Of a stretch of DNA of 32,000 bases, positions 1 through 32,000 are shown piece after piece. Position 1 is the first letter of the stretch. Every line of letters begins with the position of its first letter. A program made the position numbers and the translations under genes. The notes beneath the pieces are model-generated. The model was not told where the DNA came from. It did not search any database and worked only from the letters and a program-made list of their open reading frames with translations. Origin of the DNA: Candidatus Saccharimonadota bacterium (lineage in GTDB: Archaea; Nanohalarchaeota; Nanosalinia; Nanosalinales; Nanosalinaceae); NCBI RefSeq assembly GCF_047555085.1, contig NZ_CP180230.1, positions 90,001-122,000 of the forward strand. Direction: 5' to 3'.

Positions 1-325
1 TCATGAAAGATGAATTTATAGGGTTCATGAGGTTCATGTAGTTCTCTATCTCATCCAGTTCCTGAGAAGTCACGAACTTTCTTTTCTCCCTGTTAATGTT
101 CTTTATATCAACTTCAAGGTTTGCCACACGATCGCTTAACTCATTGACGTCATTTTCCAGCTCCTGTATATCCTCGCTGTTGGACTCCGTCTTGTTCATA
201 ATGGTGTCATCAAGAGTATTAACTCTCGCAGAGAGGTTCCTGATCTTCTCTTCCAGGTCTCGGACTCTTCGATTGAAGTCGTTAACCCGGTCAACTACCT
301 GGTTTATGATATTCTGCTGTGGCAT
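1..325 (-). CDS. coiled-coil protein, partial (C-terminus lies beyond the left window edge)
   Basis: Absent from the ORF track because it has no stop in the window. Hand translation of the reverse strand from ATG (325-323) stays open to position 1: MPQQNIINQVVDRVNDFNRRVRDLEEKIRNLSARVNTLDDTIMNKTESNSEDIQELENDVNELSDRVANLEVDIKNINREKRKFVTSQELDEIENYMNLMNPINSSF. It is heptad-like and acidic like the rest of the local proteome. The + strand ORF 96..335 is its Ser/Leu-rich antisense shadow. Divergent from the ATPase gene. Confidence 0.5.
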   Translation of the reverse strand, partial: MPQQNIINQVVDRVNDFNRRVRDLEEKIRNLSARVNTLDDTIMNKTESNSEDIQELENDVNELSDRVANLEVDIKNINREKRKFVTSQELDEIENYMNLMNPINSSFM

Positions 326-359
326 CCCTACCTAACCTTTTACCAATGCTCAAATAACA

Positions 360-2624
360 ATGTTAGGTATGGACGTAAAAAACAAGGATGTATTCGACTA
401 CGAATACGACGACGAGACAGGAACAGTCGAAATCAACATGCTTGGATCGATCTATGGGGCCTCTATAGAGGATTATCCTGAAGTCATGTCCCGTGTAATC
501 AACATTCTACAGGAGATCCCGGAAGCAGGAAACGTAGTACTATCCGAATCAAGAGAATATGAGTATGAAGAAGATCAGATAAGGCTTCTAAGAGAGATAG
601 CGAACGCAGTAAGAGATATTTCAGCACAGGGATATCTTTCACAGGATATAAAGAGAGATAAATGCAGCCAGCTGTACGATCAGCATCTACCGGAAGTACA
701 GAGAATAGTATTTGACAAGTTAAGGAGAGATCCTGTAGGGGCCTACGTCAAGCTTATTAGAAAGGAAAGACACTTGAGACAGGATAAAGACCATGCGTAT
801 CCTCAGCAACAGCGCTGTATCAAGTATTTTATACAGGATGTGATTAAACCTGTCAAAAACACTCTGGAACAGTGTGAAATGATTCAGAGAGCACAGGACT
901 ATCTTACAGGATATCACGTTGGCGATAGAGAGATCTACAGGGAATTTTTCCACCCTCTTGTAAGGCCTAACTTTATGCTTACAAAGTACATGTCTCTTCC
1001 TCCTGAAAGAGGAGAGGAGAAAACTAGATATACTGTAAGAGACGATATCGAAGTTTCTGTGTATGAAGTCCCTGATCAAACAAGGCCTGTATATCACGTT
1101 GATCCCCCGGAGTTCAATCTTCCTGAGGAGAAATACAAACTCTTGGATGCAGCTAGACGTTTCATGGCCTCTCACAAGCCGGATGAAGGAGAGTTCGCAA
1201 GGCCTGAAAGAATGAATGAAGTCTTCGAGAACATCGGCAGGGACATGCTGAGAGATATTGCGAATCAGATGGGCCTCAAACTTTCACTTGACGAACTCGA
1301 CAAGCTTACAGATATACTTAACAGATATACTTCAGGCCTGGGAGTACTAGAGATTCTTTTGACTGATCCAAAAGTACAGGACGTCTACATTAACTCTCCG
1401 ATCGGAGATGCTCCGATTTACATTACGCATCAGGACTTTGAGGACTGCGAGACAAATCTTATTCCAACAAAAGAGGAGGCCGAATCCTGGGCCACACGCT
1501 TCAGGATCCAGTCTGGAAGGCCTCTTGACGAAGCAAATCCTGTTCTCGATACAGAGACAGAGGTACAGGGAGGCCGTGCCCGTGTAGCAGTAATACAGGA
1601 AAATCTCTCTCCTTCAGGCCTTGCATTTGCTTTAAGGCGCCACAGGTCCCGTATATGGACGCTTCCACTGTTTATACAGAATGGAACTATAAATTCTATC
1701 GGGGCAGCAGTGCTTTCCTTCCTTGTGGATGGTAATCGTTCGCATCTATTCGCAGGGACGCGTGGAGCAGGAAAGACGTCTCTTCTATCAGCTGCTATGC
1801 TGGAAATCATGAAAAATCATCGTATAGTTACTGTAGAAGATACTCTGGAGCTTCCTATACCTCAGATGAAGGATCTGGGATACAATATAGAAAGGATGAA
1901 ATCTCGCTCTGTAATTACGCAGGTTGAAAATGAAATGAGTGCGGATAATGCTATTCGTACCTCTCTCCGTCTTGGAGACTCTGCGCTTGTTATTGGAGAG
2001 GTCAGATCTGATGAGGCCCAGGCCCTTTATGAGGCTATGCGTGTGGGAGCTGTAGCGAACTTTGTTGGAGGTACGATTCACGGAGAGGATGCCTACTCTG
2101 TTTTTGATCGTGTAGTCAACGATCTGGATGTTCCACGTACATCTTTCAAGGCTACAGACATCATAGTTTCTGTAAATAAAATCAGAAGCCCAGATGGCTT
2201 AGAGACATATAGAAGGGTTACGGGTATTACAGAGGTCAGAAAAGAATGGGACGAAGATCCTATGAAAGAAGATGCGTTTGTTGATTTAATGAGGTACGAT
2301 AATGAGAAAGATGAGCTTGTGCCTACAGATACTTTGCGCAACGGTGAGTCGGAGATAATAAGCAGGATTGCGGAGAATGTACAGGGATACAAGAATGACT
2401 GGGAAGCTGTATGGGACAATATACAGCTAAGGAAGAAGATAAAGGAGGCTATAGTGGAGAAAGCAGAGGAAACAGGCAATGACGAGCTTTTAGAGGCTGA
2501 ATTTGTAAACAAGTGCAACCAAAGATACCATATTCTTTCGCGCAAGGTAAATGACGAATACGGAGAACAAGACACGGAGAGAATTTATGCGCGCTGGAAA
2601 GAGTGGCTTGACAGACAGGTGTGA
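360..2624 (+). CDS. type IV pilus/archaellum-family secretion ATPase (GspE/FlaI/PilB superfamily)
   Basis: 754-aa ORF with Walker A AGTRGAGKTS, Asp box IVTVEDTLEL, Walker B ALVIGEVRSDEA and His box GGTIHGED. This is the signature set of T2SSE-type hexameric secretion ATPases. Long N-terminal domain and a charged C-terminal tail. Confidence 0.9.
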   Translation: MLGMDVKNKDVFDYEYDDETGTVEINMLGSIYGASIEDYPEVMSRVINILQEIPEAGNVVLSESREYEYEEDQIRLLREIANAVRDISAQGYLSQDIKRDKCSQLYDQHLPEVQRIVFDKLRRDPVGAYVKLIRKERHLRQDKDHAYPQQQRCIKYFIQDVIKPVKNTLEQCEMIQRAQDYLTGYHVGDREIYREFFHPLVRPNFMLTKYMSLPPERGEEKTRYTVRDDIEVSVYEVPDQTRPVYHVDPPEFNLPEEKYKLLDAARRFMASHKPDEGEFARPERMNEVFENIGRDMLRDIANQMGLKLSLDELDKLTDILNRYTSGLGVLEILLTDPKVQDVYINSPIGDAPIYITHQDFEDCETNLIPTKEEAESWATRFRIQSGRPLDEANPVLDTETEVQGGRARVAVIQENLSPSGLAFALRRHRSRIWTLPLFIQNGTINSIGAAVLSFLVDGNRSHLFAGTRGAGKTSLLSAAMLEIMKNHRIVTVEDTLELPIPQMKDLGYNIERMKSRSVITQVENEMSADNAIRTSLRLGDSALVIGEVRSDEAQALYEAMRVGAVANFVGGTIHGEDAYSVFDRVVNDLDVPRTSFKATDIIVSVNKIRSPDGLETYRRVTGITEVRKEWDEDPMKEDAFVDLMRYDNEKDELVPTDTLRNGESEIISRIAENVQGYKNDWEAVWDNIQLRKKIKEAIVEKAEETGNDELLEAEFVNKCNQRYHILSRKVNDEYGEQDTERIYARWKEWLDRQV

Positions 2625-2630
2625 AATTAG

Positions 2631-4781
2631 GTGTCTGATGAGAAAGACAAACGTAAAGAGAAAATAAACGAGATAGTTGACAATCTCGATAGAGATATCG
2701 AGATGCCTCCATATACACAGAGCTCGGGCGACCGGGGATACTCTCGTCGATACAAACAGTACAAGCAGGAAGAGATAGATTCTGGAGAGAAAAGCACCTA
2801 CGAAAAATTGTGCTATAAGATGGCATCTCTCTTGCAGCTTAGTGCGGATGAATCAATTCAAAACAAACTTAATCCATCTTTGAACCTGTTGAGAATGCAG
2901 CTAACTCCTGGTATGGTGCTTTCTGGGGCTGTAGGAGTTGGATTTTTCTCCTTTATGATATGGGCTTTCGTCTTTGCTATCAACTTTATTATAGGCCCTA
3001 TAATACCGGTTTCTCTCATGATAATTTCTCTTGTTGCCCCTATAGGGGCAGGTGTCTACATGTTCTACAAGCCAATGTTTGATGCAAAGAACAAAGTTAT
3101 AGAAAGCAGTGGCGAAATGATACTTGCAATACTTTACATGGTAGTATACATGCGTTCCAGCCCAAATCTTGAAGGAGCAGTAAGATTTGCAGCTCTTAAT
3201 CTTAATGGCCCTGTTTCACATGATCTAAAAGGCGTTTTATGGGATCTAGAAGTAGGAAAGTTCAACAGGATAGATGAATCTCTGGAGAATTACACTGAAA
3301 ACTGGAAAGACTTCAACCAGGATTTCCTGGAGTCGCTGAACCTCTTGCAGGCAGCAATGGACGAGTCAAACGATGAAAGACGTGAAAAGATGCTTCAGGA
3401 TGCAATAGACAACATTCTGGAAGGAACCCAGGAGAAAATGAAGCACTATGCTCAGGGCCTTAAAACGCCTGTAATGATAATAAACGCCATGGGAGCGATG
3501 CTTCCTGTATTAGGTATGATTATGCTACCTCTTATCTCTGTATTTATGGGGGGAGTTATTACACCGATCCATCTTGTCATAATATTCAATATAATGCTTC
3601 CAGGATTTCTCTGGGTATTCATGCAGAGGGTTCTAAGCTCTAGGCCTCCAACAGTATCTTCTAGGCCTGTAAATACTGATTCGATGCCGCCAAGAGGCAA
3701 GTATGAAATTGAGTTCATGGGAGATAAGCATAGGTTGCCTACATGGCCTTTAGGCGTCATAGTATTCTGTATTGTCGCCATGTATGGTGTTATTGGCTAT
3801 TTAATCTATCCTCACATGTTTCCTGTAGAAAATATCAGTCCTGGAAGCGTTCCATCCATATTTATGTCTGGTAGCGAGTCTCTTGCACCTCTGCCTATGC
3901 TTATGCGATCTGTATCTATTGTTATGGCGCTAGGCCTCGGTTTTGGGATTACAAAGTATCTGGGGAATATCAACAGGCGTGATGCAGAGCAGCAGATAGA
4001 GGAGATGGAGAGCCAGTTCCCGAATGCACTTTTCGAGCTTGGTAACAAGGTTTCTGGGGGTACGCCTATGGAGATTGCACTGAAAAAGGCGGCTGATGCG
4101 ACGCAGGATCTTGAGATATCGAAGCTTTTCGAAGAGGCCTATGAAAATATTGATCAGATGGGTATGACTTTTGAACAGGCTATATTTGACGAGCGCTACG
4201 GTGCCTTGAGAAGCTTTCCAAGTCAGATGATTGATACTATTCTTACTGCTATTCTTCGTTCATCTCAAAAAGGTACTAAGATGGCGGCTACTGCTATGCT
4301 TACGATTTCCAGGTATCTAAAAGATGTTCACAAGACTGAAGAAACTCTTAATGATTTGATGGAAGAGTCTACAACTACTATTGAGATGCTTGCATACATG
4401 CTGGCTCCTATAATATCTGGAGTTGCTGTAGGAATGTCGCAGACGATTATAACAGCTATGTTCAAGCTTTCTACATCTATTAGCGCAGAGCAATCTGGCA
4501 GTACTCTTCAGGGAGGAGCTGCAGGAGGTGCAGGATTTGGAGGCATGATCGGCAACTTGAAAGAAGCTATCCCGCCAGAAATGCTACAGTTTGTAGTTGG
4601 GATTTATTTACTCCAGCTGCTTTACATACTAGGTACTTTCTACATGAAAATTGTCCATGGAGAAAATATGACATACAAGAATCTCTTCATTGGCAAAGTG
4701 ATGGTAACAGGCCTGATATTTTATACTCTTACGTTGACAGCCATCTCTGTCATGTTCGGTGGAGCTATATCCACGATGTAG
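2631..4781 (+). CDS. polytopic membrane platform protein (FlaJ/PilC/TadC, T2SSF-like)
   Basis: 716-aa ORF with a GTG start 7 nt after the ATPase stop. Two clusters of TM helices, each preceded by a soluble helical segment (GEMILAILYMVVYMRSSPNLEGAVRFAA and MESQFPNALFELGNKVSGGTPMEIALKKAA). This matches the duplicated T2SSF architecture. Sits directly downstream of the ATPase. Confidence 0.8.
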   Translation: MSDEKDKRKEKINEIVDNLDRDIEMPPYTQSSGDRGYSRRYKQYKQEEIDSGEKSTYEKLCYKMASLLQLSADESIQNKLNPSLNLLRMQLTPGMVLSGAVGVGFFSFMIWAFVFAINFIIGPIIPVSLMIISLVAPIGAGVYMFYKPMFDAKNKVIESSGEMILAILYMVVYMRSSPNLEGAVRFAALNLNGPVSHDLKGVLWDLEVGKFNRIDESLENYTENWKDFNQDFLESLNLLQAAMDESNDERREKMLQDAIDNILEGTQEKMKHYAQGLKTPVMIINAMGAMLPVLGMIMLPLISVFMGGVITPIHLVIIFNIMLPGFLWVFMQRVLSSRPPTVSSRPVNTDSMPPRGKYEIEFMGDKHRLPTWPLGVIVFCIVAMYGVIGYLIYPHMFPVENISPGSVPSIFMSGSESLAPLPMLMRSVSIVMALGLGFGITKYLGNINRRDAEQQIEEMESQFPNALFELGNKVSGGTPMEIALKKAADATQDLEISKLFEEAYENIDQMGMTFEQAIFDERYGALRSFPSQMIDTILTAILRSSQKGTKMAATAMLTISRYLKDVHKTEETLNDLMEESTTTIEMLAYMLAPIISGVAVGMSQTIITAMFKLSTSISAEQSGSTLQGGAAGGAGFGGMIGNLKEAIPPEMLQFVVGIYLLQLLYILGTFYMKIVHGENMTYKNLFIGKVMVTGLIFYTLTLTAISVMFGGAISTM

Positions 4782-4821: not shown

Positions 4822-4902
4822 ATGCAGGAAATCGTGGCTATCGCTGTCTCACTTGGAGTAGGTGCATTAATGATAGCCTTATGGGGTAAGGAAGTTTTAT
4901 GA
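4822..4902 (+). CDS. 26-aa hydrophobic micro-protein (hand-found, below ORF-track size cutoff)
   Basis: Translates as MQEIVAIAVSLGVGALMIALWGKEVL, a single TM helix. Its TGA overlaps the ATG at 4899 (ATGA). Could be non-coding. Confidence 0.3.
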   Translation: MQEIVAIAVSLGVGALMIALWGKEVL

Positions 4903-4943
4903 GGGTCTTGAGAAGCTGGATGGTTTACAGGAAAGGAGAAGAT

Positions 4944-5090
4944 ATGATGATGTCCGAGATAACTATAGGAGTTCTTGCGATAGCTATAGGGGCATTACTG
5001 GCTGCTGCAGCTTCCGGCATGCTAGGTAACAGCGGTATAACGGCAATGATAATGAGTCCTCTCTCCGAAATGACTGCAGGTGCCTTATAA
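4944..5090 (+). CDS. small membrane protein (48 aa from the ATG triplet; ORF track gives 4899..5090)
   Basis: MMMSEITIGVLAIAIGALLAAAASGMLGNSG... has an N-terminal hydrophobic helix. The SD-like AAAGGAGA lies just upstream of ATGATGATG at 4944. Its stop TAA overlaps the next ATG (TAATG). Confidence 0.4.
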   Translation: MMMSEITIGVLAIAIGALLAAAASGMLGNSGITAMIMSPLSEMTAGAL

Positions 5091-6058
5091 TGGCAGGACA
5101 GCAAATTAACAGGATGATGAGCATCGTACTTATACTTCTCTTTGTAGTAGTGCTCGGATCCTTCGCATTCACAATGGTAGGGGAAGCTGAATCTTCGGCA
5201 GTAGGAAAGATACAGATTAACAGCACACAGGCTATGACTCAACTTATCGTATACGACACACTGATAGCACACAGCTGCACCGATGAAAAAGGAGGTTACA
5301 GAAACTACCTTGATAGCTGGGCAGAATTCAGGGAAGAATACGACTTCGGCCTTCTTGAAGGAGCAGGATCCAGTCTTAGATGCTCTGCTTCAACTTCAAA
5401 GCTTCCGCTTTCACAGGGATTCTGGGATGAAGTAAACCCATTCGACAACGACAACTGGCTTAACGATCAACAGGGCAAATACTCCAGAAAAAATTTTGTC
5501 ATAGAGGGAGATGATCCTGTCGAACTAGGTCCATGCATAATCAATGAAGGGAACAACAAAGATATGGTGTTTTTCGTAACGGATGACAAAGTGGCAAACA
5601 CGCTCACATGGAACAAAGGATATAGTTTCAACAACGGAAATGATTATGTGAGTGCTTGGGAGTGTAATAGAATACATGGCGGTAGCGGCAATGGGGGTAC
5701 ATCTGATGGGCCTGTAATTGTCCTGAATGTTATTGGTGCTGATGAAGCAAATCCAAATACGCGGAGTGTTGGTGCATGGAACAACTTCAACGATGCAAAT
5801 ACAGGAGGTGCTCATGACATTCCGCTTCACTTCTACGAACTCTGTAAAGGCACATCAGGATACATCCAGACCAATGTAGCTAATAACAATGATGAAGTTG
5901 ATGATGGTGCTGACAGAGGACCTCATATATGGCGCAAAAGTGGCTCATATACTGCTGAACAGCCTCCTGGGGATCCTGATCGCGAAGTAGGAGGGAAGTC
6001 ACGTTCCAACAGGATGCATCCGTACATAGTGATAACTAACTGGGAGTCCTGTGATTAA
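5090..6058 (+). CDS. pilin-like/secreted protein with a single N-terminal TM helix (322 aa)
   Basis: MAGQQINRMMSIVLILLFVVVLGSFAFTMVG is followed by an Asn/Asp/Gly-rich soluble domain with 6 Cys. Translationally coupled to the upstream ORF. No family recognised. Confidence 0.6.
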   Translation: MAGQQINRMMSIVLILLFVVVLGSFAFTMVGEAESSAVGKIQINSTQAMTQLIVYDTLIAHSCTDEKGGYRNYLDSWAEFREEYDFGLLEGAGSSLRCSASTSKLPLSQGFWDEVNPFDNDNWLNDQQGKYSRKNFVIEGDDPVELGPCIINEGNNKDMVFFVTDDKVANTLTWNKGYSFNNGNDYVSAWECNRIHGGSGNGGTSDGPVIVLNVIGADEANPNTRSVGAWNNFNDANTGGAHDIPLHFYELCKGTSGYIQTNVANNNDEVDDGADRGPHIWRKSGSYTAEQPPGDPDREVGGKSRSNRMHPYIVITNWESCD

Positions 6059-6061
6059 GAA

Positions 6062-6069
6062 ATTTATAA
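6062..6069 (+). promoter_or_regulatory. candidate TATA box (ATTTATAA)
   Basis: AT-rich TATA-like octamer in the 54-nt gap after the 322-aa gene, about 45 nt upstream of the ATG at 6113. Confidence 0.25.
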
Positions 6070-6112
6070 GAGGAAAAACAAAGGCCTTAATGTGGAACGA
6101 AAAGGATTTGAC

Positions 6113-6241
6113 ATGCCTATATCCGCTGTACTTGCTATAGTTTTGGGAGTTCTGTTTATAGCGGCTTACTGGGCTGCAGTATCAGGATACTTTGATACCA
6201 CTGCACAACAGGCCACAGGACTGGCGGAGGCCCTGCCATGA
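6113..6241 (+). CDS. 42-aa hydrophobic micro-protein (hand-found)
   Basis: Translates as MPISAVLAIVLGVLFIAAYWAAVSGYFDTTAQQATGLAEALP. Its stop overlaps the next ATG (ATGA at 6238-6241). Confidence 0.35.
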   Translation: MPISAVLAIVLGVLFIAAYWAAVSGYFDTTAQQATGLAEALP

Positions 6242-6405
6242 AAACTAGCAAAGGATTCAATTTCTCTATAAGAACAGTCATGATTGTAACTGTTGGAGTA
6301 ATAGCTGCTCTAGTTATAATGTCATTTCTGAACGATGGCACAGGCCTTTTCTCAAATTTCACAAATAGAACAGTTCCAGAGGGTGGTTTTGTTGGACAGC
6401 CGTAA
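6238..6405 (+). CDS. 55-aa pilin-like protein with a class III signal peptide (hand-found)
   Basis: MKTSKG/FNFSIRTVMIVTVGVIAALVIMSF... has a short basic n-region, a KG cleavage-type motif and then a hydrophobic helix. This is the archaeal prepilin layout. Confidence 0.5.
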   Translation: MKTSKGFNFSIRTVMIVTVGVIAALVIMSFLNDGTGLFSNFTNRTVPEGGFVGQP

Positions 6406-6637
6406 AGCAGTCACTCTTTCGATAAAAACTGTTCTGTTGCTTATGATAGGCGCACTAGTCGTACTCAGTATCATGGGCGCCTGGGGCGCATTCGAAGGAA
6501 ATCTAAGTGATACAGTCGGCGATTCAAATCAACAGGCACAAGATCAGTCCAGCCAGGCTTCTTGTCAGCTGGAGTGCAGACAGGAACATCTGAGCGGTGG
6601 AGGTGAATACGAGGCCTGTGTTCAGAGCTGTTCGTAA
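6383..6637 (+). CDS. small pilin-like protein with four C-terminal Cys
   Basis: The ORF track starts at ATG 6335, which would overlap the previous gene by 70 nt. In-frame GTG 6383 or TTG 6389/6392 gives (M)VLLDSRKA/VTLSIKTVLLLMIGALVVLSIMG. The C-terminus is SCQLECRQEHLSGGGEYEACVQSCS (C-x3-C ... C-x3-C). Start uncertain. Confidence 0.5.
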   Translation: MVLLDSRKAVTLSIKTVLLLMIGALVVLSIMGAWGAFEGNLSDTVGDSNQQAQDQSSQASCQLECRQEHLSGGGEYEACVQSCS

Positions 6638-7202
6638 TTTAAAATCCAGTAAGGGGGCTATAATGGCCTCTACCGTATTTATAGTTGTTTCTGTAGTTGT
6701 ATCTGGTCTTGCAATGGATATAAGCATTAATACGGTTGTTGATTCATTTCAATCGGCCAGCGACCAAAGTGATGTTAACTGGTTCTCCACTAATATAGCG
6801 GCTAATGCCAAGCAGCTGTGCGAGACATCTGAGGAAAGAGTTGTCCCTCTAGATAGTAGCTACACACGGTATATCTCAGGTCTTCAGGGCATCAGTGTGG
6901 AAACTCAGGAACAGGTTATTCCCAGTTATGGTGCTGCTCCATCGACTACGATATACTATAACAAGTTTATACTCTCCTTCGAAGGAGGTGCAGATGATAA
7001 AGAAGTTACTATAGAGTCTGAGAGCTCAACTTACAGCGGTGGAGGTCCAGATGATTTTTCCTGCCAGACGATAGAGTTCAACGGCACTCAGACAGGTAGC
7101 TCCATCCAGAACCTAGATGGATCCCAAAGATATGATTACCGTCTCTACTCTGAACAGGAAGGAGAGGTAACTGTAGAAGTAGTTGAAAGTGGTGAGGCAT
7201 GA
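6597..7202 (+). CDS. pilin-like protein (201 aa; alternative start ATG 6663)
   Basis: The long form reads ...NLKSSKG/AIMASTVFIVVSVVVSGL, with a class III-like KG motif. The short form starts at MASTVF, preceded by an AAGGGGG SD. 2 Cys. Confidence 0.6.
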   Translation: MEVNTRPVFRAVRNLKSSKGAIMASTVFIVVSVVVSGLAMDISINTVVDSFQSASDQSDVNWFSTNIAANAKQLCETSEERVVPLDSSYTRYISGLQGISVETQEQVIPSYGAAPSTTIYYNKFILSFEGGADDKEVTIESESSTYSGGGPDDFSCQTIEFNGTQTGSSIQNLDGSQRYDYRLYSEQEGEVTVEVVESGEA

Positions 7203-7603
7203 CACTATCTGACAGAGCTGTTGTATTTTTGGTAGCTACTCTTTTGTCAGCAGCTACTTTGTCCACGGCAGGGATAGCTGAACAGAACAGCGTCTTCCAG
7301 AACAAGATTTTCGAACTCAGAGGCCAGCAATTAGCCAATGATATAGATGCCATGATGTATACGGATGAAGGATACCTTGAGAAAAGACTGGCATCTGAAA
7401 CAGATCTAACTATCACATCAGGAGACTCAGGTATGAAAATAGTGCTTGAGAGAGAAGGCCTGGACGATGTAGAGGCACCACTGGATTCAAGTCCGAGCTC
7501 GACAACTTTAGAGGACGTATCTTACCTCTGCATACATAAGCATAGATTCAATCCAGTTCAGGGAGTGGCTGAACTGGTAGATGTGGAGGGAGGACAATGT
7601 TAG
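7199..7603 (+). CDS. pilin-like protein (134 aa)
   Basis: MTLSDRA/VVFLVATLLSAATLSTAG N-terminal helix. ATGA overlap with the upstream gene. 2 Cys, one of them the C-terminal residue. Confidence 0.6.
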   Translation: MTLSDRAVVFLVATLLSAATLSTAGIAEQNSVFQNKIFELRGQQLANDIDAMMYTDEGYLEKRLASETDLTITSGDSGMKIVLEREGLDDVEAPLDSSPSSTTLEDVSYLCIHKHRFNPVQGVAELVDVEGGQC

Positions 7604-8094
7604 ATAATCGTATCGCACAGGCTGGTGTTATGGTGGGCGTAATGGGGCTTCTATTTGGAATGGTATTGGCTCCTATACCGAACGTGGCCTCTGAATATGT
7701 CTTACAAGGTATACTTGGAGACATGACTTTTCACTATGGTCGACATCAGGCTGCTTTTGAGGCATATCAGATAACAGCATCACCATCAAATCCAAACTAT
7801 CTGGTTGAAGATTACGTGATTCAGACGGCGGTTGACAATCCTTCCGACTGTGAAAACTCCAGGGGGGACTACTTCCAGTTCGAAAGAAGTGTGCTTGATG
7901 ATGGAAACTGTGTTGAGACTCCGGATACTGCATATACATATGGGTACTATGGCACAGGTGCAGCGTATCAGCAGGAAATAACAGATACTCCACCAAGAAT
8001 ATCGTTTTACGTTAGAGACGATGGCCCAAACTCAATGAATCTCGAATTAAGTGAACAAACACTGAATACGTTACCATTTTATCAAGAGGATTAG
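7597..8094 (+). CDS. pilin-like protein (165 aa)
   Basis: MLDNRIAQAGVMVGVMGLLFGMVLAPIP N-terminal helix. 7-nt overlap with the upstream gene. 2 Cys. Confidence 0.6.
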   Translation: MLDNRIAQAGVMVGVMGLLFGMVLAPIPNVASEYVLQGILGDMTFHYGRHQAAFEAYQITASPSNPNYLVEDYVIQTAVDNPSDCENSRGDYFQFERSVLDDGNCVETPDTAYTYGYYGTGAAYQQEITDTPPRISFYVRDDGPNSMNLELSEQTLNTLPFYQED

Positions 8095-8104
8095 AAATAT
8101 GTTT

Positions 8105-8112
8105 AAGGAGGT
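8105..8112 (+). promoter_or_regulatory. Shine-Dalgarno site AAGGAGGT
   Basis: Near-perfect complement of an archaeal 16S 3' end, 8 nt upstream of the ATG at 8121. Weaker GGTG/GAGGTG motifs precede many other starts here (2631, 13102, 18362, 20487, 22093). Confidence 0.5.
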
Positions 8113-8120
8113 AGAAAGAA

Positions 8121-8615
8121 ATGGCTAGCATCGCGGATGGACTTTTCTTTCCAATAGCTGCTGTAGCCACGGCCGCATTCATTGCATTTGTAGTGGCCAT
8201 AATACCTCAGGCGACTGCAGATCTTACTACTGCTGCTAACAGGCAGACGGCACAGTTAGAAGTACATTCTATGATGTCTACATTGTTCCACGGACAATCT
8301 TACAGTGCCGATGATGGGACGCCAATAACAGATTATCAAACTATATCCTATCTTATCTGCGGCAAAAACCCTGATAATGGAGGCTGGCTGGACATAGGCA
8401 ATCAGGAATACCTTGATACAGGTGAAATAGAACTGGCCTCTCACTATGAGATACGGATTTCAACACCGGATCTATGTGGCAACAGCAAATGGAATCCGCC
8501 TGAAGGATATGCGGGAGTAGACTCAGGTCAGACTGTAAACAGCTACTATGATGTAATGCTGCCTGTGAGAGGAGGGGAAACAGCCCGTATACGAATGGTG
8601 TATGGATTTGACTAA
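8121..8615 (+). CDS. pilin-like protein (164 aa)
   Basis: MASIADGLFFPIAAVATAAFIAFVVAIIPQ N-terminal helix. Strong SD. 2 Cys. Confidence 0.65.
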   Translation: MASIADGLFFPIAAVATAAFIAFVVAIIPQATADLTTAANRQTAQLEVHSMMSTLFHGQSYSADDGTPITDYQTISYLICGKNPDNGGWLDIGNQEYLDTGEIELASHYEIRISTPDLCGNSKWNPPEGYAGVDSGQTVNSYYDVMLPVRGGETARIRMVYGFD

Positions 8616-10131
8616 GAGAAGACAACAAAAAGGACAGTCGATGCAGATACTTCTTTTCGCTTTAGTAATAGTAGGCCTTGCTGTAGGCGTAATGTCATTT
8701 ACACAGGTAATGACTGCTCCACAGATATTCGGTTCTACCATGGATGATGTACCGGTTATCTCAGAGGCCCAGTCCAGGACGGATAACGTGGCTAATTACT
8801 ATGTGCCGCTTTCAGCGCACTACTCCATGGCACAGGGCGTGTATGATGTAGGACAGGCCAACGACATAATAATGACGTATCAGAATCTCCAAGATCATTA
8901 CGGTGACGAGGTGGACGACGTTGAAGTAGCATCACAGTATACATTTGAGGGGTATATACAGGATCCAGAATGGGAAATAGGAAGATGCACTATAGAGGTG
9001 CCTCCGAAAGATCTTGAGGTCGGGATAAACTCCACTCTCGTGAACGTCACCAAGGAAAACTACAACGATCCATTCGTCAGAACCCTCTGTGAAGGTGGTG
9101 ATGTAGAGGTACAAACACAGAGTAACAAAGACGAGGCCCAGAAAAACACGTCCAATATCCGTTTCCATCACCTCATGGTGATGACTATAAACGGCCTGGA
9201 GGCGGTTCATGAGGAATCTGAAACTGCAAAAGATGATGACGATTACTACGGCACTGTAACTGAAGAAGGGGCCTGTTATCTCGATGGGAACGATCCCCAG
9301 ACAAAAGAGGAAAAAGCCAGACAGGATGCCAGGCAAGAATCATATGACTCCGCAGTAAGCGAGATTCTAAGTCTTCAGGAGAGATTTGAGGAAGCAGGAT
9401 GGAACGCAGTAGATAATATCGAAGTATCTGAAGACGAAAATACAGGTATATTTGGCAGAATTATAAATTTTGTTACGTTCTGGGAGACGGATAATACATT
9501 TGACTGGAGCTTCAATGTCTACGAAAACTCCACAGAGATTAGCGAACAGTCAAATGAGCTTAGCGACTGCGAATGTGCAGAATATGACTGCGAAGGATAC
9601 ATAGATGATAGTACATACGAATACGATTCATCCGACAGTCAGTGCAAACATGAAGATGAACCCTTTGGAAGCCCAAATTGTGATGAATACAGCGGGGTAG
9701 TCCACGATGGGTCAGGAAGCTGTGAAACAAGTTATCATCCTCCAAAATGCGATCCCGGATACAGTTTCAACTCGAGCACCAATACATGTGAATCTGATTA
9801 TGGCAATGACTGGGAGTTCGCCTGCGATCAGAATGACTACTACCTGGATACCAGTGATGAAGAATGCGTACACGATAATTCAGGAGAAGATGCAACCTGT
9901 GATAGCTCGGCAGCCAAAGAGTCCGGCGGCGACTGTGTACACGATGGAGAAAGACCTAGTCCAGTATGCGTGCTACAGCCTGTAAAAGCAGAATCTGAGA
10001 CATACTACGAACTGAAAGACTACAAAATGCAATCATACACCGAGGACGAAAAATACGAAATACCTGTGGAAGATGGATGGGAAAACCTTGAGATCAAACG
10101 AAGATACCCATACGACTTCCCAGAACCATAG
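8602..10131 (+). CDS. large pilin-like protein with a Cys-rich C-terminal domain (putative tip adhesin)
   Basis: MDLTKRRQQKGQS/MQILLFALVIVGLAVGVMSF is a typical archaeal class III signal (basic n-region, KGQ, hydrophobic helix). The 509-aa protein is very acidic and has 16 Cys, 13 of them in residues 323-456. 14-nt overlap with the upstream gene. Confidence 0.75.
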   Translation: MDLTKRRQQKGQSMQILLFALVIVGLAVGVMSFTQVMTAPQIFGSTMDDVPVISEAQSRTDNVANYYVPLSAHYSMAQGVYDVGQANDIIMTYQNLQDHYGDEVDDVEVASQYTFEGYIQDPEWEIGRCTIEVPPKDLEVGINSTLVNVTKENYNDPFVRTLCEGGDVEVQTQSNKDEAQKNTSNIRFHHLMVMTINGLEAVHEESETAKDDDDYYGTVTEEGACYLDGNDPQTKEEKARQDARQESYDSAVSEILSLQERFEEAGWNAVDNIEVSEDENTGIFGRIINFVTFWETDNTFDWSFNVYENSTEISEQSNELSDCECAEYDCEGYIDDSTYEYDSSDSQCKHEDEPFGSPNCDEYSGVVHDGSGSCETSYHPPKCDPGYSFNSSTNTCESDYGNDWEFACDQNDYYLDTSDEECVHDNSGEDATCDSSAAKESGGDCVHDGERPSPVCVLQPVKAESETYYELKDYKMQSYTEDEKYEIPVEDGWENLEIKRRYPYDFPEP

Positions 10132-10183
10132 GCAGCAGAGATAAAAATTTTCACTACAAATACACCAACCAAGTGACTACCAT

Positions 10184-10468
10184 ATGACACAGGATACAGC
10201 AGACGACAACACGGTATACATTGGCTCAAAAACAGCAATGAGCTACGTACACGCCGTAGTAACTCAGTTCAGCGAAGGACAGGAAACAGTACACATCAAG
10301 GCCCGAGGAAAAGCAATAAGCAGGGCAGTAGATGTGACTGAATTCATAAGAAATCGCTTCGTAGAAGACGCAGAGATAGAAAATATAGAAGTAGGAACAG
10401 ATCAGATCGAGACAGATGAAGGCGGAGAACTCAACGTATCTTCAATACAGATCGATCTAACAAAATAA
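10184..10468 (+). CDS. albA: chromatin protein Alba (Sac10b family)
   Basis: 94 aa. [21 protein letters not shown]...[24 protein letters not shown] matches the conserved Alba core (IKARG.AIS.AVD..E..RNRF). Confidence 0.9.
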
Positions 10469-10540
10469 TTCCCCAGAGGCCTCATCCAGAGGCCCAGGGA
10501 AAATCTATTTTTATCGAATAAGGCTTATTTCTCAAAGGAT

Positions 10541-10548
10541 TTTTATAC
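10541..10548 (+). promoter_or_regulatory. candidate TATA box TTTTATAC
   Basis: Ends 23 nt before the ATG at 10572, a spacing expected for a leaderless or near-leaderless archaeal mRNA. The same octamer lies in front of 11251. Confidence 0.4.
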
Positions 10549-10571
10549 AGGCATAGATAACAACACACTAT

Positions 10572-10916
10572 ATGGAACGTAAAGGAATCTCTCAGGTATT
10601 ATTCTTGATAATAGCAGCATCCGTACTGATGATGGTAGCACTAACGCTCATTTTCATGTTCCAGTCCGGTGCCGGAGATACTACTCAACAGGCCCAGACA
10701 CAGACATGCATATCATCTGTACAGGCTAAATGTAACAGCTTCGGAGATGAATATGTGAGAATGCCTGGGGCATGCATAACAACAGTTGATGGACAGAGAC
10801 AGATGCTTCCAAACACATTCGCGCCACATACTCAGGGAGCTAATGGATACAGTTCGGTATCGTCGCTTTCAGGGACTTCAGGCGCTGTCTATGCTGACTG
10901 TGGAGAAGTTTCATGA
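10572..10916 (+). CDS. pilin with class III signal peptide (114 aa), candidate major subunit
   Basis: MERKG/ISQVLFLIIAASVLMMVALTLIFMF. Small Ser/Thr/Gln-rich domain with 4 Cys. Has its own TATA-like element. Confidence 0.7.
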   Translation: MERKGISQVLFLIIAASVLMMVALTLIFMFQSGAGDTTQQAQTQTCISSVQAKCNSFGDEYVRMPGACITTVDGQRQMLPNTFAPHTQGANGYSSVSSLSGTSGAVYADCGEVS

Positions 10917-10926
10917 GGTATAGAGA

Positions 10927-11202
10927 ATGGATAAGACTCTGGAGATAGTGCTGGTGGCAACCACGCTCGTAGTAGCATCTGTAGTGGTTGTCTCCATGCT
11001 TCAGGGCCAATCCAGCAGCTTTGGAGATTTTTCTGAGGGCCAGACGAGCTCAGCATCATGCGGACTTGGTTACCAGCAGTGGCAGCAGTCGATTGACTGT
11101 GGTGGGGGATCCGCAGACACGACCTCACGATCAGATGAACTGGAGAGCGAGTATGATGACTGCGAGTGGACTGACAGTCCCAGCGCCAGTGAAGCATGCT
11201 AG
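10927..11202 (+). CDS. small pilin-like protein, paralog A (91 aa)
   Basis: MDKTLEIVLVATTLVVASVVVVSMLQGQ N-terminus. 4 Cys, including the C-terminal residue. Paralogous to 11251..11520. Confidence 0.65.
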   Translation: MDKTLEIVLVATTLVVASVVVVSMLQGQSSSFGDFSEGQTSSASCGLGYQQWQQSIDCGGGSADTTSRSDELESEYDDCEWTDSPSASEAC

Positions 11203-11221
11203 AAGCCATTTTTCAAATTTC

Positions 11222-11229
11222 TTTTATAC
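11222..11229 (+). promoter_or_regulatory. candidate TATA box TTTTATAC
   Basis: Ends 21 nt before the ATG at 11251. Identical octamer to 10541-10548. Confidence 0.4.
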
Positions 11230-11250
11230 CTCCATCCACAATAGAACTCT

Positions 11251-11520
11251 ATGGATAAGACGCTGGAGATAATCATGGTCGCCATGACACTTGTAGTAGC
11301 GGCCGTAGTAGTTATTTCCATGCTTCAGGGAGAATCAGGAGATTTTGGTGAGTTCTCAGATGGACAGCAGGAGAGCTCTCAGTGCGGACTTGAAGAACTC
11401 AAATACGAGAGAGCTCTTGATAAGGAATCCTGTTCGGAAACAACTGCAGCTGAGAACATAAGAACAGGCTCCAGTTGTGACTGGGCAGGAAGCAGCAGCC
11501 AAGCATCAGACTACTGCTAG
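11251..11520 (+). CDS. small pilin-like protein, paralog B (89 aa)
   Basis: MDKTLEIIMVAMTLVVAAVVVISMLQGE N-terminus. Cys pattern is conserved with paralog A (CGL...C...C[ED]W...C-end). Confidence 0.65.
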   Translation: MDKTLEIIMVAMTLVVAAVVVISMLQGESGDFGEFSDGQQESSQCGLEELKYERALDKESCSETTAAENIRTGSSCDWAGSSSQASDYC

Positions 11521-18361: not shown

Positions 18362-18673
18362 GTGCCTGAAGATGAAGAAGAGGGAATAGGACGTGTACGT
18401 GAACCTGAAGGAGATGAAGTACTTGGAATCGTTCTGAGAAAGGAAGGAGGAGGAAAGTACCGCGTATACTGTACAGACAACAACGAAAGAATATGCCGTA
18501 TCCCTGGAAGCAAGAAGAGAGGCCTCTTCGTCAAGAGAGATTCTGTAGTGCTTGTCGATCCCTGGAAGATTCAGGGCGACGAGAAAGGCGATGTAGTACA
18601 CAGCTACAGTAACGCAGAGACAAGATGGCTGGAAGACAGGGATTACCTGGACGAAATCAAGGAATTCCTCTAA
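18362..18673 (+). CDS. eif1a: translation initiation factor aIF-1A
   Basis: 103 aa with a GTG start after an AAGGTGG SD. The GRVREPEGDEVLGIV...G..Y.V.C.D...R.CRIPG..K......RD.V.V.PW core matches the S1-like OB fold of eIF-1A. Confidence 0.9.
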   Translation: MPEDEEEGIGRVREPEGDEVLGIVLRKEGGGKYRVYCTDNNERICRIPGSKKRGLFVKRDSVVLVDPWKIQGDEKGDVVHSYSNAETRWLEDRDYLDEIKEFL

Positions 18674-20486: not shown

Positions 20487-22076
20487 ATGGCAAATGGAAT
20501 TGAAGAACCAGTACAGGAAGAATCCGACCACAGAGAGATCTCAGTAGCAGAGTTTTTCGAGAAGAACAAGCACCTGCTGGGATTCGAGAATGCACAAAAA
20601 TCTATAATAACAGTAATTAAGGAGGCCGTTGACAACTCTCTGGATGCTTGTGAGGAAGATGCTATACTTCCGGAGATACAGGTCCTTATCGATGATCTTG
20701 GCGACGATAAATGCCGTGTCGAGATCAGGGACAATGCTATAGGCCTCGACAGGGAGACTATTCCGAAGGTATTCGGTAAGCTGCTTTACGGATCAAAGTT
20801 CCACAAGCTTCAGCAGAGCCGTGGACAGCAGGGAATCGGTATCTCCGCTTCTGCGATGTACGCTCAGTTGACTACAGGAGAGCCTGTAACTGTTTACTCG
20901 AAGCAGAAAGGTGAGCCGTGTCACAGATTTGTTGTAAGAATTGATACTGAGAAGAACGAGCCGGAGATTCTTGAAGATGAGATTGTTGATCCGGAAAGCG
21001 ATGAGTTCCCTGGAGACAAGGATTACTACTTCGATCATGGAACAACTATCGAGATGAACATCGAGGCCAAGTACACGAAAGGCCACCACTCCGTCCGCAA
21101 CTACCTCAAGCATACGGCGATCATGAATCCGTACGCAAGAGTAGTTCTACGGGAGCCAAGCGGCAACAAGATCGAGTATCCGCGTGTCTCAAAGGAGCTC
21201 CCGGAGCCTCCGAAGGAGATCAAGCCTCATCCGCATGGAGTGGAGCTTGGAGTCATGCTGCGTATGATAGACAACAGCGACTCCCGTACAATCAGCAGCT
21301 TTCTTCAGAGCGAGTTCACACGTGTCGGAAGAACTTCTGCAGAGGAGATCTGTGAAGAGGCCGATATAGATGATGGGAGAAGGCCTAACACATTAAGTAA
21401 AGATGAAGTAGAGCAGATTCTTAATGCCGCACAGCGTGTAAAGCTTCAGAATCCTCCTACAGACTGTCTTTCTCCTCTTGGAGAGGATCTGATGCTTAAA
21501 GGCCTGGAGAAAGAGTTGAATCCAGAGTTCACAGAGACTATCACTCGTAAGCCAAGTGTTTATCAGGGGAATCCTTTCCAGGTGGAAGTTGGACTTGCAT
21601 GGGGAGGAGATATTGAAGATGAAGGAAGCTTTGAAGAACTAAGATACGCTAACAAGGTGCCGCTTCTTTACAAGAAATCGGCCTGTGTGACTACAAAAGC
21701 TATAGAAGATGTTTCCTGGAACCGCTATAACATCAGCCAGACAGGTAACAGGCCTCAAGGCCCGCTTTACATCTCAATTCACATTGCATCGGTTTGGGTG
21801 CCGTTTACTTCAGAAGGTAAGGAGGCTGTTGCCAACTACGATCCTATCCGGAAGGAGATGAAGCTGGCATTACAGGAAGCAGGTAGAAAGCTTGGAAAGT
21901 ATCTCAAGAGGAAAGAGAGAAGAGAAATCCAGGAGAAGAAGAAGAGACAGCTCACATCCTATGCAAAGGAGATGGGGCCTGCTATTGCGCAGCTAGCCGG
22001 TGAAGGTGATGCTGAGGAAATCGAAGATGAGATCCAGGCGATGGTTCAGAGGGACTACAATCCGGAGCAGCTTTAA
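20487..22076 (+). CDS. top6B: DNA topoisomerase VI subunit B
   Basis: ISVAEFFEKNKHLLGF......IITVIKEAVDNSLDACEE (GHKL Bergerat fold N-box) and GKLLYGSKF...QSRGQQGIGIS (G-boxes). 529 aa. Confidence 0.95.
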   Translation: MANGIEEPVQEESDHREISVAEFFEKNKHLLGFENAQKSIITVIKEAVDNSLDACEEDAILPEIQVLIDDLGDDKCRVEIRDNAIGLDRETIPKVFGKLLYGSKFHKLQQSRGQQGIGISASAMYAQLTTGEPVTVYSKQKGEPCHRFVVRIDTEKNEPEILEDEIVDPESDEFPGDKDYYFDHGTTIEMNIEAKYTKGHHSVRNYLKHTAIMNPYARVVLREPSGNKIEYPRVSKELPEPPKEIKPHPHGVELGVMLRMIDNSDSRTISSFLQSEFTRVGRTSAEEICEEADIDDGRRPNTLSKDEVEQILNAAQRVKLQNPPTDCLSPLGEDLMLKGLEKELNPEFTETITRKPSVYQGNPFQVEVGLAWGGDIEDEGSFEELRYANKVPLLYKKSACVTTKAIEDVSWNRYNISQTGNRPQGPLYISIHIASVWVPFTSEGKEAVANYDPIRKEMKLALQEAGRKLGKYLKRKERREIQEKKKRQLTSYAKEMGPAIAQLAGEGDAEEIEDEIQAMVQRDYNPEQL

Positions 22077-22092: not shown

Positions 22093-23223
22093 ATGCCAAA
22101 GAAAGATCTAGCAAATGACGAAGATACCCTTGACAGGCTAGTCCGTCTTGGGAAAAAACTTAGAAACCAGCTTAACGATCCAGAGAGCGACAATTTGACT
22201 ATTGACACCAAGGTACGTTCAAAGTCAAATGTCGAGTACGATGAGGAGGAAGGAAGACTTTCTCTCGGTGACAGCTACTCCACAAGAAAGTTCCTGAACA
22301 TTTCTCACGCCAGAAAGTTCATGCAGACCACGCTGGTCGCTAACAAGGCCAAGGAACTTGTAGAAAACGGTAGAACGGCTTCCATCCGAGAAGTATACTA
22401 CCAGCTCAAGCACAGTGTTCCAGGCCTCGACGAGAACACTTTTGAGGATCAGGACGAGTCCAACAACGTTGTTGTCGACATCGAGACAGCGACAGGAGCA
22501 ATCCGTGAAGATCTGCACCTTTTTGCAGAGCCTAAAGGACGACTGTTCGGACCAATCAAGATCAACGACTCTGGCGACACGATCGATGCAATGAGCATGG
22601 GAAGCGCCGGAATGGCAATTCCATCCATCGTCGACCACCTGGAGTTCGAGGAAAACAACGCAGACTTCATCCTCGTAGTCGAGACATCTGCGATGGTCAA
22701 CAGACTCGTGGAGGAAGATTTCCACGAGGAACACAACGCTATAATCATTGGAACAGGAGGACAGCCAGCACGTGGAGCAAGACGACTCATCAACATGATG
22801 CACAACGAACTGGACCTACCGGTATACGTCTTCACTGACGGCGACCCATGGGGATACTACATCTACTCAGTCCTCAAATCCGGATCAATGAGCCTCGCAT
22901 TCCAGTCCGATAGACTTGCAACACCGGACGCAAAGCTCATCGGTATGACAATGGAAGATATCGAGGCCTACGGGCTTGAACACGTAACAGAAGACCTGAA
23001 AGGAAAGCCAGAGGACTCCGGCGGACCTACAAAAGACTACAAGCGTATCCACGACGTCATGGACTACGAGTGGATGCAGAAAGAGGAATGGCAGAAACAG
23101 CTTGAACTCATGCTTGACAAAGGAGTCAGAGTCGAGCAGCAGGCCCTGGCAGCCAACTCACTTGAGTTCGTGGCAAACCAGTACCTGCCTGAAAAGATCG
23201 AAAACGAGACATTCCTCGATTAA
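22093..23223 (+). CDS. top6A: DNA topoisomerase VI subunit A (Spo11 homolog)
   Basis: IREVYYQLK holds the catalytic Tyr region. Toprim motifs are FILVVETSAM and VFTDGDPWGYYIY. 376 aa, 16 nt after top6B. Confidence 0.95.
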   Translation: MPKKDLANDEDTLDRLVRLGKKLRNQLNDPESDNLTIDTKVRSKSNVEYDEEEGRLSLGDSYSTRKFLNISHARKFMQTTLVANKAKELVENGRTASIREVYYQLKHSVPGLDENTFEDQDESNNVVVDIETATGAIREDLHLFAEPKGRLFGPIKINDSGDTIDAMSMGSAGMAIPSIVDHLEFEENNADFILVVETSAMVNRLVEEDFHEEHNAIIIGTGGQPARGARRLINMMHNELDLPVYVFTDGDPWGYYIYSVLKSGSMSLAFQSDRLATPDAKLIGMTMEDIEAYGLEHVTEDLKGKPEDSGGPTKDYKRIHDVMDYEWMQKEEWQKQLELMLDKGVRVEQQALAANSLEFVANQYLPEKIENETFLD

Positions 23224-27577: not shown

Positions 27578-27581
27578 GGAA

Positions 27582-31294: not shown

Positions 31295-31382
31295 TTTGAT
31301 TCTTAAAACTCACCTATAAAATCATCTATACGAAACCGGGTTTCCGGTTTCCTGATTCGGGAACTCTCTGAGTTCCATTCAA

Positions 31383-31456: not shown

Positions 31457-31494
31457 AATATCCTGCTACTGGATTATCAGGTGTCTGAAAAATT

Positions 31495-31833
31495 TTGATA
31501 CAATCTTTCCTCAGTGCTGCAGATAAAACTGATATACAGGTCCTGTCGGAATCTGATCTGGAACAGGCCCGGCGCAGAGGAGACTTTGAAAGGCCTCTGT
31601 TCTTCTACGAGACTGATTCCCGTGTAGAAGTCTACGAAAGCAATCCCCGGCTTGGAGAAATTTTACATCCGTTCAATTCAACTCACGACTACTTTCTGCG
31701 TGTCGATCCAAGTTACACACACGAGGCCTATTTCTCCGCTACAGAACAGGATCTCAAAGAGATCACGGATACACTTTCATCTATCGTGGAGAACTCCGAT
31801 GAGGCCTACATGAAGATCGTACAGGATTTCTGA
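31495..31833 (+). CDS. hypothetical protein (112 aa, TTG start)
   Basis: Clean acidic ORF. The start is uncertain because no in-frame ATG lies near the 5' end. Confidence 0.45.
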   Translation: MIQSFLSAADKTDIQVLSESDLEQARRRGDFERPLFFYETDSRVEVYESNPRLGEILHPFNSTHDYFLRVDPSYTHEAYFSATEQDLKEITDTLSSIVENSDEAYMKIVQDF

Positions 31834-31841
31834 CAAAAATT

Positions 31842-32000
31842 TTACCACGGATCGTGTTCGAAGCCGTGATCCTCAGCTCTCTCAATCATATCGTCTTCAT
31901 CAGCGTTCTGGACCGGCTCCATCTGCCAGTCCTCGAAGTCATCATTCATCTTCTTGACAGCTTCGGCCTCAGCCTCACTCATTATTGAAACATTCGCTGT
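31842..32000 (-). CDS. small acidic ORF, possibly partial (hand-found)
   Basis: The reverse strand reads MSEAEAEAVKKMNDDFEDWQMEPVQNADEDDMIERAEDHGFEHDPW-stop from ATG 31982 to TAA 31844-31842. The frame stays open upstream to the window edge, so the true start may lie outside. Confidence 0.3.
   Translation of the reverse strand, partial: TANVSIMSEAEAEAVKKMNDDFEDWQMEPVQNADEDDMIERAEDHGFEHDPW

Follow-up and report, generated by a model that had tools for sequence, protein, structure and literature searches.

AGGCCT as a hyper-abundant palindrome in nanohaloarchaeal genomes: distribution, maintenance and a possible methylation-linked drive

A 32,000-nt stretch of a nanohaloarchaeal genome (contig NZ_CP180230.1, positions 90,001 to 122,000; called the window below, always at its full length) is densely sown with the palindromic hexamer AGGCCT, which occurs in it 114 times (3.56 per kb), a 16-17-fold over-representation. 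The excess is independent of coding frame, comes close to saturating the positions at which protein sequence permits it, and is switched on or off among close relatives of the source genome. As a tentative explanation, we propose that AGGCCT resembles the highly iterated palindromes (HIPs) of cyanobacteria and is spread by a sequence-directed drive that is probably linked to DNA methylation.

Abundance of AGGCCT in the window

AGGCCT is the commonest of all 4,096 hexamers in the window, and the next in rank are its own sub-words GAGGCC and GGCCTC. At a GC content of 45.3%, base composition (order 0) predicts 6.2 copies and an order-1 Markov model 7.1; 100 dinucleotide-preserving shuffles yielded 6.65±2.43 copies with a maximum of 13, and Markov models of order 2 and order 3 gave expectations of 20 and 53. 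The exact count agrees with an earlier note on this DNA, which had put the number at about 110-115, the GC content in the mid-40s % and the predicted number at roughly 6. That note had also held that a count within a few fold of a Markov expectation would speak against the enrichment. At maximal order this is formally so (110.7 expected), but the value is uninformative because AGGCC and GGCCT mostly belong to AGGCCT itself (114 of 150 and 114 of 152 copies, respectively); with its 5-mers dominated by the motif this null is meaningless and was discarded.

The 206 GGCC tetramers comprise 114 within AGGCCT, 74 with one correct flank and only 18 with neither, in keeping with the earlier statement that most of them are flanked as AGGCCT. 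Sequence information ends at the six bases, a T before and an A after being merely disfavoured. The copies are dispersed over the whole window (1-32000) in coding and non-coding DNA and share no common flanks; their spacing is near-exponential (coefficient of variation 0.88, minimum 12 nt), and a repeat finder run on the window returned only chance families seeded by the hexamer itself, with no repeat family underneath. Being its own reverse complement, this perfect G+C-rich palindrome cannot be skewed between strands, which excludes the strand or orientation skew characteristic of Chi and of KOPS/FtsK-type motifs.

A second hexamer, GTATAC, was moderately over-represented (13 copies in the window, 4.5 times the order-1 expectation, and ~6 times in the related loci L009 and L203), and this excess was present in AGGCCT-rich and AGGCCT-poor genomes alike.

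Coding context and saturation

Gene models in the window are our own calls based on open reading frames (ORFs), by which 89% of it is coding. The 100 genic sites occupy all three codon phases, as had been claimed: 23 are AGG-CCT (Arg-Pro), 41 nAG-GCC-Tnn and 36 nnA-GGC-CTn. Fourteen sites are intergenic (4.1/kb vs 3.5/kb in coding DNA). Upstream of tRNA-Asn the motif stands at distances of 11 and 53 nt, and upstream of tRNA-Arg at 80-250 nt; spacers and tRNA neighbourhoods do carry it, and no copy lies inside a tRNA of the window. Shuffling synonymous codons within genes, with proteins and codon usage kept, gave 15.5±3.4 copies, and shuffling codon order gave 7.7±2.7, vs 101 sites in coding sequence. 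Thus codon or dipeptide bias cannot account for the excess, as the earlier note had argued, and a DNA-level process is required.

Peptide contexts able to encode AGGCCT synonymously use it in ~80% of all cases: 24 of the 26 Arg-Pro contexts in the window are written AGG-CCT, 36 of the 46 x-Gly-Leu contexts carry the motif (GGA is left in only three), and so do 41 of the 57 [EKQ]-Ala-[SYLFCW] contexts. Contexts that require transversions or multi-step conversions (GGA to GGC, GCA to GCC, CGN to AGG; A to C, A to T) are also near saturation. One part of the window departs from this: in a stretch with pilin-like genes at 4.9-11.5 kb only 5 of 12 opportunities were used, vs 96 of 117 elsewhere (Fisher p=0.004). 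This low-density stretch (4900-11520, plus strand), which holds pilin-like small genes, Alba and two small paralogues, also offers few opportunities per kb; it is syntenic in relatives and hence fast-evolving rather than recently acquired. The paralogues (10927-11202 and 11251-11520) are adjacent, share 117 nt at 74% identity and have no family assignment. The dense part of the window (11517-32000) holds 97 sites at a mean spacing of 211 nt, and the tightest cluster packs three sites (14724, 14746 and 14766) into 48 nt (14724-14771), at the end of the FEN1 gene and in the adjacent 4-nt spacer.

Distribution among relatives

Two proteins of the window, TopoVI-B and the T2SSE-family ATPase, have counterparts in Candidatus Nanosalina sp. 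VS9-1 (Nanohaloarchaeota) with 100% identity. Nanohaloarchaea are DPANN ectosymbionts of haloarchaea. The orthologous TopoVI region and a second region around the ATPase were collected from genomes and metagenomes; the readable sequence amounts to ~32 kb from the source genome plus stretches of 8-22 kb from relatives (labelled L001 and so on), and many counts are small.

AGGCCT was dense in clade A (the window, L201/L202, L205/L206, L287, L288, L289 and L292; 2.2-4.4 per kb), in clade B (L011, L008, L216, L217 and L219; 2.5-4.5 per kb) and in strain M3_22 (L001 and L290; 2.1 and 1.4 per kb). With the exception of L218, the other nanohaloarchaeal loci, among them J07AB43 and N. constans (0.13 sites/kb), had 0-0.85 per kb, and ~130 loci of other archaea had at most 0.84 per kb. 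In orthologous regions, enriched genomes used 0.61-0.88 of the opportunities and non-enriched ones 0.00-0.22. At the hexamer level, no alternative hyper-abundant motif was found in the non-enriched nanohaloarchaeal relatives.

In a bootstrapped neighbour-joining tree built on six proteins, support for clade A (window, L201, L205) was 100% and its sister, at 99.5%, was the non-enriched J07AB43 group; clade B was likewise supported at 100%, and nested inside it was L218 (LFCJ01002000.1), with only 0.7 AGGCCT per kb. The backbone of the tree was unresolved. The trait is switch-like among close relatives, and the placement of clades A and B and of the depleted L218 therefore requires at least three gain or loss events.

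The motif is not an avoided or restricted target in the enriched lineages: it is over-represented there, not under-represented, and a putative integrated mobile element in L205 (1-4600; D5_N primase/DUF5906, an RHH protein and small ORFs), which adjoins the conserved DUF192-NMD3 block, is as AGGCCT-dense as its host (2.9/kb). Relatives of this D5-primase element were not found in IMG/VR viral contigs. A scan of viral contigs for three clustered AGGCCT returned mostly tandem repeats among the matches listed and was uninformative on nanohaloarchaeal viruses. Among viral or plasmid contigs, the non-halophilic L128 (IMGVR_UViG_3300031867_007516, 10,794 bp), which is seemingly circular with identical ends and has a ParA-like gene, holds 22 dispersed AGGCCT vs 2.8 expected, with flanks that are not shared; L081 and L122 (GC 36%) likewise hold dispersed copies. 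Enrichment may occur in further hosts. The loci L203 and L204, which encode the same TopoVI-B protein in two ENA assemblies, are identical until ~15.6 kb and then diverge; past ~15.7 kb L204 has a phage-type integrase where L203 has small ORFs, suggesting a strain-level insertion polymorphism.

The GGCC core varied as well. It was strongly avoided in L212 (one in 11 kb), in L004 (14 in 21 kb) and in N. constans (L291, CP040089 759693-781951; nine in 22 kb vs ~46 expected), suggesting GGCC-specific restriction in lineages that neighbour AGGCCT-rich ones. M3_22 (CP046106 834681-877659) has 6.1-6.4 GGCC per kb, as in saturated genomes, but the complete AGGCCT accounts for no more than a quarter to a third of them, half-sites outnumbering full sites; in this strain the outer positions of the motif may be in the course of build-up or decay.

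Maintenance of sites and effects on proteins

The closest relatives of the window (ATPase 96-97% identical) differ from it at 43-49% of third codon positions. Between the window and L287, 18 of 21 sites were shared, with six mismatched bases inside sites vs 28.3 expected from codon-class rates (P=5e-7); the comparison with L201 gave 15 vs 46.5 (P=7.5e-8). Window sites whose peptide is conserved were AGGCCT in 75-90% of cases in other enriched genomes, vs a neutral expectation of 10-30% and 0-15% in non-enriched genomes. Two sites illustrate this pattern: i) the universally conserved Arg-Pro at codon 421 of TopoVI-B (21750-21755, plus strand) is AGG-CCT in all eight other enriched genomes and in none of 16 non-enriched ones; ii) the site in the conserved Arg-Gly-Leu at codon 52 of eIF-1A (18520-18525, plus strand) recurs in eight of eight other enriched genomes and in no non-enriched one.

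At other sites the protein itself has changed. The site at FEN1 codon 147 (15283-15288, minus strand) is enabled by a Pro to Ser replacement (QAP to QAS), which has two separate origins, one in the window and one in L216. At codon 290 of TopoVI-A (22964-22969, plus strand), where the site goes together with alanine as the middle residue, EAY with AGGCCT is found only in the window and L201; most other genomes have EEY or DEY, and two non-enriched genomes have DAY without AGGCCT. In the same alignments, motif-compatible peptides were ~1.3-1.5 times more numerous in enriched genomes. In these alignments the process that favours AGGCCT reaches the amino-acid level too, with site-creating replacements that arose in parallel. 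Near-identical strain pairs offered too few differences for polarising single-nucleotide polymorphisms, and a singleton test detected no site gains where only 0.5 changes were expected.

Near-cognate hexamers and decay in L218

One-base variants of the motif were unevenly distributed in a pool of the window, L001, L008 and L011, a pattern that is confounded by coding phase, which limits the changes that are silent. Outer variants (NGGCCT/AGGCCN) stood at 1.5-2.7 times the order-1 expectation and reached 1.9-5.5 times their density in non-enriched genomes; inner variants were flat or depleted (0.5-1.1 times expectation), and GGCC with neither correct flank was not enriched. The earlier note had suggested looking for depletion of the deamination products. 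AGGTCT/AGACCT was indeed depleted, in the window (8 vs 21.6±5.1) and summed across clade A loci (50 vs ~101); the other pair, AGGCTT/AAGCCT, was only weakly low (13 vs 19.1).

L218 has retained five of the 24 sites ancestral to clade B and lost 19. Nine of its 12 single-step changes fell on the central G3/C4 (binomial p=0.004), and AGGTCT/AGACCT has become its second most over-represented hexamer (24 vs 7.3; P=8e-7). At positions orthologous to phase-1 sites of L011, alanine in L218 is encoded by GCG at four of seven former sites (AAGCGT three times), GCG making up 13% of its Ala codons; this excess of a C5 to G change qualifies the decay pattern.

Gene content of the window

Pfam covered 37 of the 41 ORFs kept in the window (at least 60 aa), and NCBIfam and PADLOC were applied to the unannotated ones. 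The window encodes Alba, iPGM, FEN1, EF-1β, NMD3, eIF-1A, RIO1, a KH protein, topoisomerase VI B and A, deoxyhypusine synthase, an epimerase and three tRNAs. A T2SSE-family ATPase and a T2SSF-like membrane protein (360-4781, plus strand), parts of a machine like the archaeal type IV pilus or archaellum, are followed by a cluster of small pilin-like genes. Several nanohaloarchaeal homologues of the ATPase (among P0163, P0177, P0192, P0212, P0214, P0218 and P0220) reach ~1,250 aa with intein/LAGLIDADG domains (PF14528, PF14890); the ATPase of the window (360-2624) has no intein.

At 13102-14703 lies a gene for a 533-aa protein with 39% Asp+Glu, internal repeats at ~105-nt spacing and weak Pfam matches only; it is coiled-coil-like and 33-35% identical to its counterparts in relatives. 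The last 23 nt of tRNA-Arg(GCG) (16622-16644) are exactly repeated 76 nt downstream (16698-16720), a duplication reminiscent of the att type, as an integrating element would leave behind. In related loci, a regular-expression scan produced two candidates for the driver gene, which were rejected as an arginase-like protein and an out-of-frame ORF.

Candidate mechanisms

The reading that we favour, without claiming even odds for it, is that AGGCCT is a HIP-like palindrome under a probably methylation-linked, sequence-directed drive. A lineage-specific, sequence-recognising process would turn near-cognate hexamers into AGGCCT at any place where the encoded protein permits, sometimes even at the cost of an amino-acid change, and the sites would then be kept intact while neighbouring synonymous positions randomise. 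What the sequences establish is a force directed by DNA sequence and indifferent to coding, which makes and keeps AGGCCT, is on in some lineages and off in others, and leaves behind, once lost, decay focused on the central G/C. The most likely engine would be a cytosine methyltransferase with AGGCCT or its GGCC core as target and the central C4 as the methylated base (AGG-mC-CT), working together with biased repair or recombination in which the strand with the methylatable site is preserved or copied. This would amount to a ratchet of the type that Elhai proposed for cyanobacterial HIPs, including T:G correction at the methylated C, and AGG-mC-CT would supply the G-mC dinucleotide of his model. 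Upon loss of such a system, sites would decay fast and chiefly at the central G/C. Near-saturation and unregulated spacing, with sites 12-30 nt apart, favour a drive over a spacing-tuned function.

Several points weigh against this reading: i) the StuI-type methyltransferase or Vsr-like gene that the earlier note had proposed to search for did not turn up, Pfam, NCBIfam and PADLOC detecting neither a DNA methyltransferase nor a Vsr, an HhH-GPD glycosylase or a defence gene in the window, and motif scans of a set of related nanohaloarchaeal loci revealing no methyltransferase, Vsr or glycosylase; ii) clade B shows no depletion of AGGTCT/AGACCT (0.8-1.3); iii) AGCCCT/AGGGCT, which arises by transversion, is likewise depleted in the window, and deamination repair does not account for this; iv) the codon-aware "ghost" test for former sites in L218 is weak because GGT in front of Leu is frequent in many genomes that are not enriched; v) conservation above background is equally expected for functional, selected sites, and has been used as an argument for HIP1 function (PMC5861425); vi) an Elhai-type model needs mismatch-repair components, which nanohaloarchaea may or may not possess; vii) methylation, the methylated position and the repair bias are wholly what we infer from patterns in the sequences.

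Alternatively, AGGCCT could be a DNA uptake or recombination-enhancing signal, perhaps when methylated, that spreads by molecular drive; we regard this as unlikely. Such a drive, blind to position and coding, is consistent with near-full use of opportunities, with the conservation of sites and with the changes in amino acids, and the density of sites is lower in the fast-evolving surface-protein cluster. According to recent work on HIP1, that motif enhances transformation, an effect that depends on methylation, and correlates with uptake genes, and DPANN archaea have been hypothesised to import DNA via pili (PMC9563170). The pilus-like machine within the window, to which the earlier note had pointed, turned out not to be specific: its ATPase cluster shows synteny and 76-97% conservation throughout Nanohaloarchaeota, and species that are non-enriched or avoid GGCC, such as N. 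constans, are no exception, so proximity to AGGCCT is no evidence for an uptake function. Furthermore, a 6-bp palindrome is barely specific, as host-like DNA of 65% GC would hold ~0.3 sites/kb by our own calculation; no ComEA/ComEC/DprA-like competence genes were seen among the profiled window proteins; and natural transformation and uptake specificity are not known for these organisms.

Still less probable, in our estimate, is that AGGCCT is the binding site, selected copy by copy, of an abundant protein, for instance one that organises the nucleoid or the chromosome or one that marks DNA as self. The conservation of sites well above background would follow, and the on/off distribution would track gain or loss of one protein. 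However, near-saturation, clusters of sites 12-30 nt apart and near-exponential spacing are unlike a spacing-tuned architectural signal, selection would be needed on thousands of individually weak sites, and the central G/C decay in L218 has no obvious reason under loss of a protein; no candidate protein was identified.

The earlier note had offered a very-short-patch drive, and as the whole cause this is very improbable. Here a C5-methyltransferase with a T:G endonuclease or glycosylase would convert AGGTCT/AGACCT to AGGCCT and do nothing else, as the depletion of this pair in clade A and its excess in L218 might suggest; an archaeal precedent, M.MthTI with Mig.MthI, is said to exist on the Methanothermobacter plasmid pFV1. 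Yet contexts that need A to C, A to T or multi-step codon changes are equally saturated, clade B lacks the depletion, and by our own reasoning merging the two deamination products with the motif predicts ~3-4-fold enrichment, not 16-17-fold. Finally, that the excess is a side effect of codon usage or of a preference for certain dipeptides, or comes from a repeat element or an artefact of assembly, has next to no chance of being correct: the window does use AGG, CCT, GCC and GGC reasonably often as codons, but shuffles that preserve proteins and codon usage have already refuted it, three phases and spacers are used, flanks are unconserved with no repeat family, the enrichment recurs in independent assemblies from NCBI, ENA, JGI and Tara, and orthologous genes of sister lineages lack it.

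Significance

In the searchable literature we found no paper that joins AGGCCT with nanohaloarchaea and none on HIP-like palindromes in archaea. Hyper-abundant palindromes have been known in cyanobacteria for about thirty years, and their origin and function are debated, with proposals of a ratchet based on repair, of a role in nucleoid structure and of a signal for uptake or recombination. AGGCCT adds a second, independent case in another domain of life, in ~1-Mb genomes with few genes. Since its lineages are saturated (up to 4.5 sites/kb), empty or decaying, the cause becomes testable by comparing polymorphism, methylomes and the genes present. The motif skews codon usage and, beyond that, protein sequences, which matters for composition-based binning, for the detection of horizontal gene transfer and for codon models in DPANN, and it marks contigs of enriched lineages in metagenomes.

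Going beyond the methylation-linked drive, and as a speculation to which we assign a low probability, some nanohaloarchaea may own a system, new for archaea, by which a dense tag of six bases is written into the genome and kept there. It could be a sequence-directed conversion or repair machine, or a mark of "self" by which an ectosymbiont that imports and degrades host DNA could tell its own from host DNA, or recombine only with kin. Because the trait is on in some sister lineages and off in others, the genes behind it could be traced by presence and absence, and this might also explain cyanobacterial HIP1.

Comparison with known systems

The Dcm/Vsr pair of E. coli (CCWGG enrichment, CTAG depletion) shares with AGGCCT a depleted deamination-type neighbour and an effect on a cytosine-centred palindrome. 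It acts on T:G products only and its effect is modest, whereas the AGGCCT enrichment is 16-17-fold and involves all six positions; C/T changes at a methylated position alone do not explain it, transversion and multi-step contexts being just as saturated. Closer in taxonomy is the system of Methanothermobacter plasmid pFV1, reportedly described by Horst and Fritz in EMBO J in 1996, in which M.MthTI (GGCC) is accompanied by the T/G glycosylase Mig.MthI. It likewise is archaeal and pairs GG-mC-C methylation with context-preferring T:G repair, and its methylated position matches the decay hot spot of L218. It differs in being a restriction-modification system that is not known to go with over-representation of its site, and no homologue was identified in our data.

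The DNA uptake sequences (DUS) of Neisseria and uptake signal sequences (USS) of Pasteurellaceae are also short motifs spread genome-wide at ~1 copy per kb, within genes and in all frames, and they are thought to accumulate by molecular drive, as Maughan, Redfield and colleagues are said to have put it in Genetics in 2010. They are 9-12 nt long and non-palindromic, whereas AGGCCT carries no information outside its six bases, and they belong to naturally competent bacteria with a known receptor (ComP for DUS).

Regarding methylation of the same hexamer, the ~3.1-Mb genome of Alcanivorax borkumensis has AGGCCT at only ~0.5/kb. Its strain SK2 carries an AGGCCT restriction-modification system whose cytosine methyltransferase modifies nearly all sites, so that AGGCCT-specific cytosine methyltransferases do exist (PMC12128166). 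There, however, the second C is modified (AGGC-mC-T), the restriction enzyme is active and the genome holds 1,674 sites (PMC12128166). The only nanohaloarchaeal methylome that we found, that of N. occultus, features GDGcHC methylation, a rare motif.

The nearest parallel is the cyanobacterial HIP family, comprising HIP1 (GCGATCGC) and the "alternate HIPs" GGCGCC, GCCGGC and GCsGC (PMC4390886, PMC5861425). These are short G+C-rich palindromes, at least 15-fold over-represented with at least one copy per kb, that occur in all reading frames and in spacers and are conserved between genomes above background. One-base deviants of HIP1 are concentrated at outer positions (PMC4390886, Elhai), as those of AGGCCT are, and HIPs show the same sporadic, switch-like distribution among relatives, their cause and function being debated (PMC4390886, PMC5861425). 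AGGCCT is not HIP1 proper, i.e., GCGATCGC in a cyanobacterium, as it is a hexamer of other sequence in an archaeal (DPANN) host. It also stands out by its density (2-4.5/kb), by the near-saturation of coding opportunities and by measurable effects on amino acids. The HIPs have a demonstrated cognate methyltransferase, while that of AGGCCT is putative. Thus AGGCCT is at most a new case of the "alternate HIP" kind, one that displays every sequence-level feature of HIPs that we tested.

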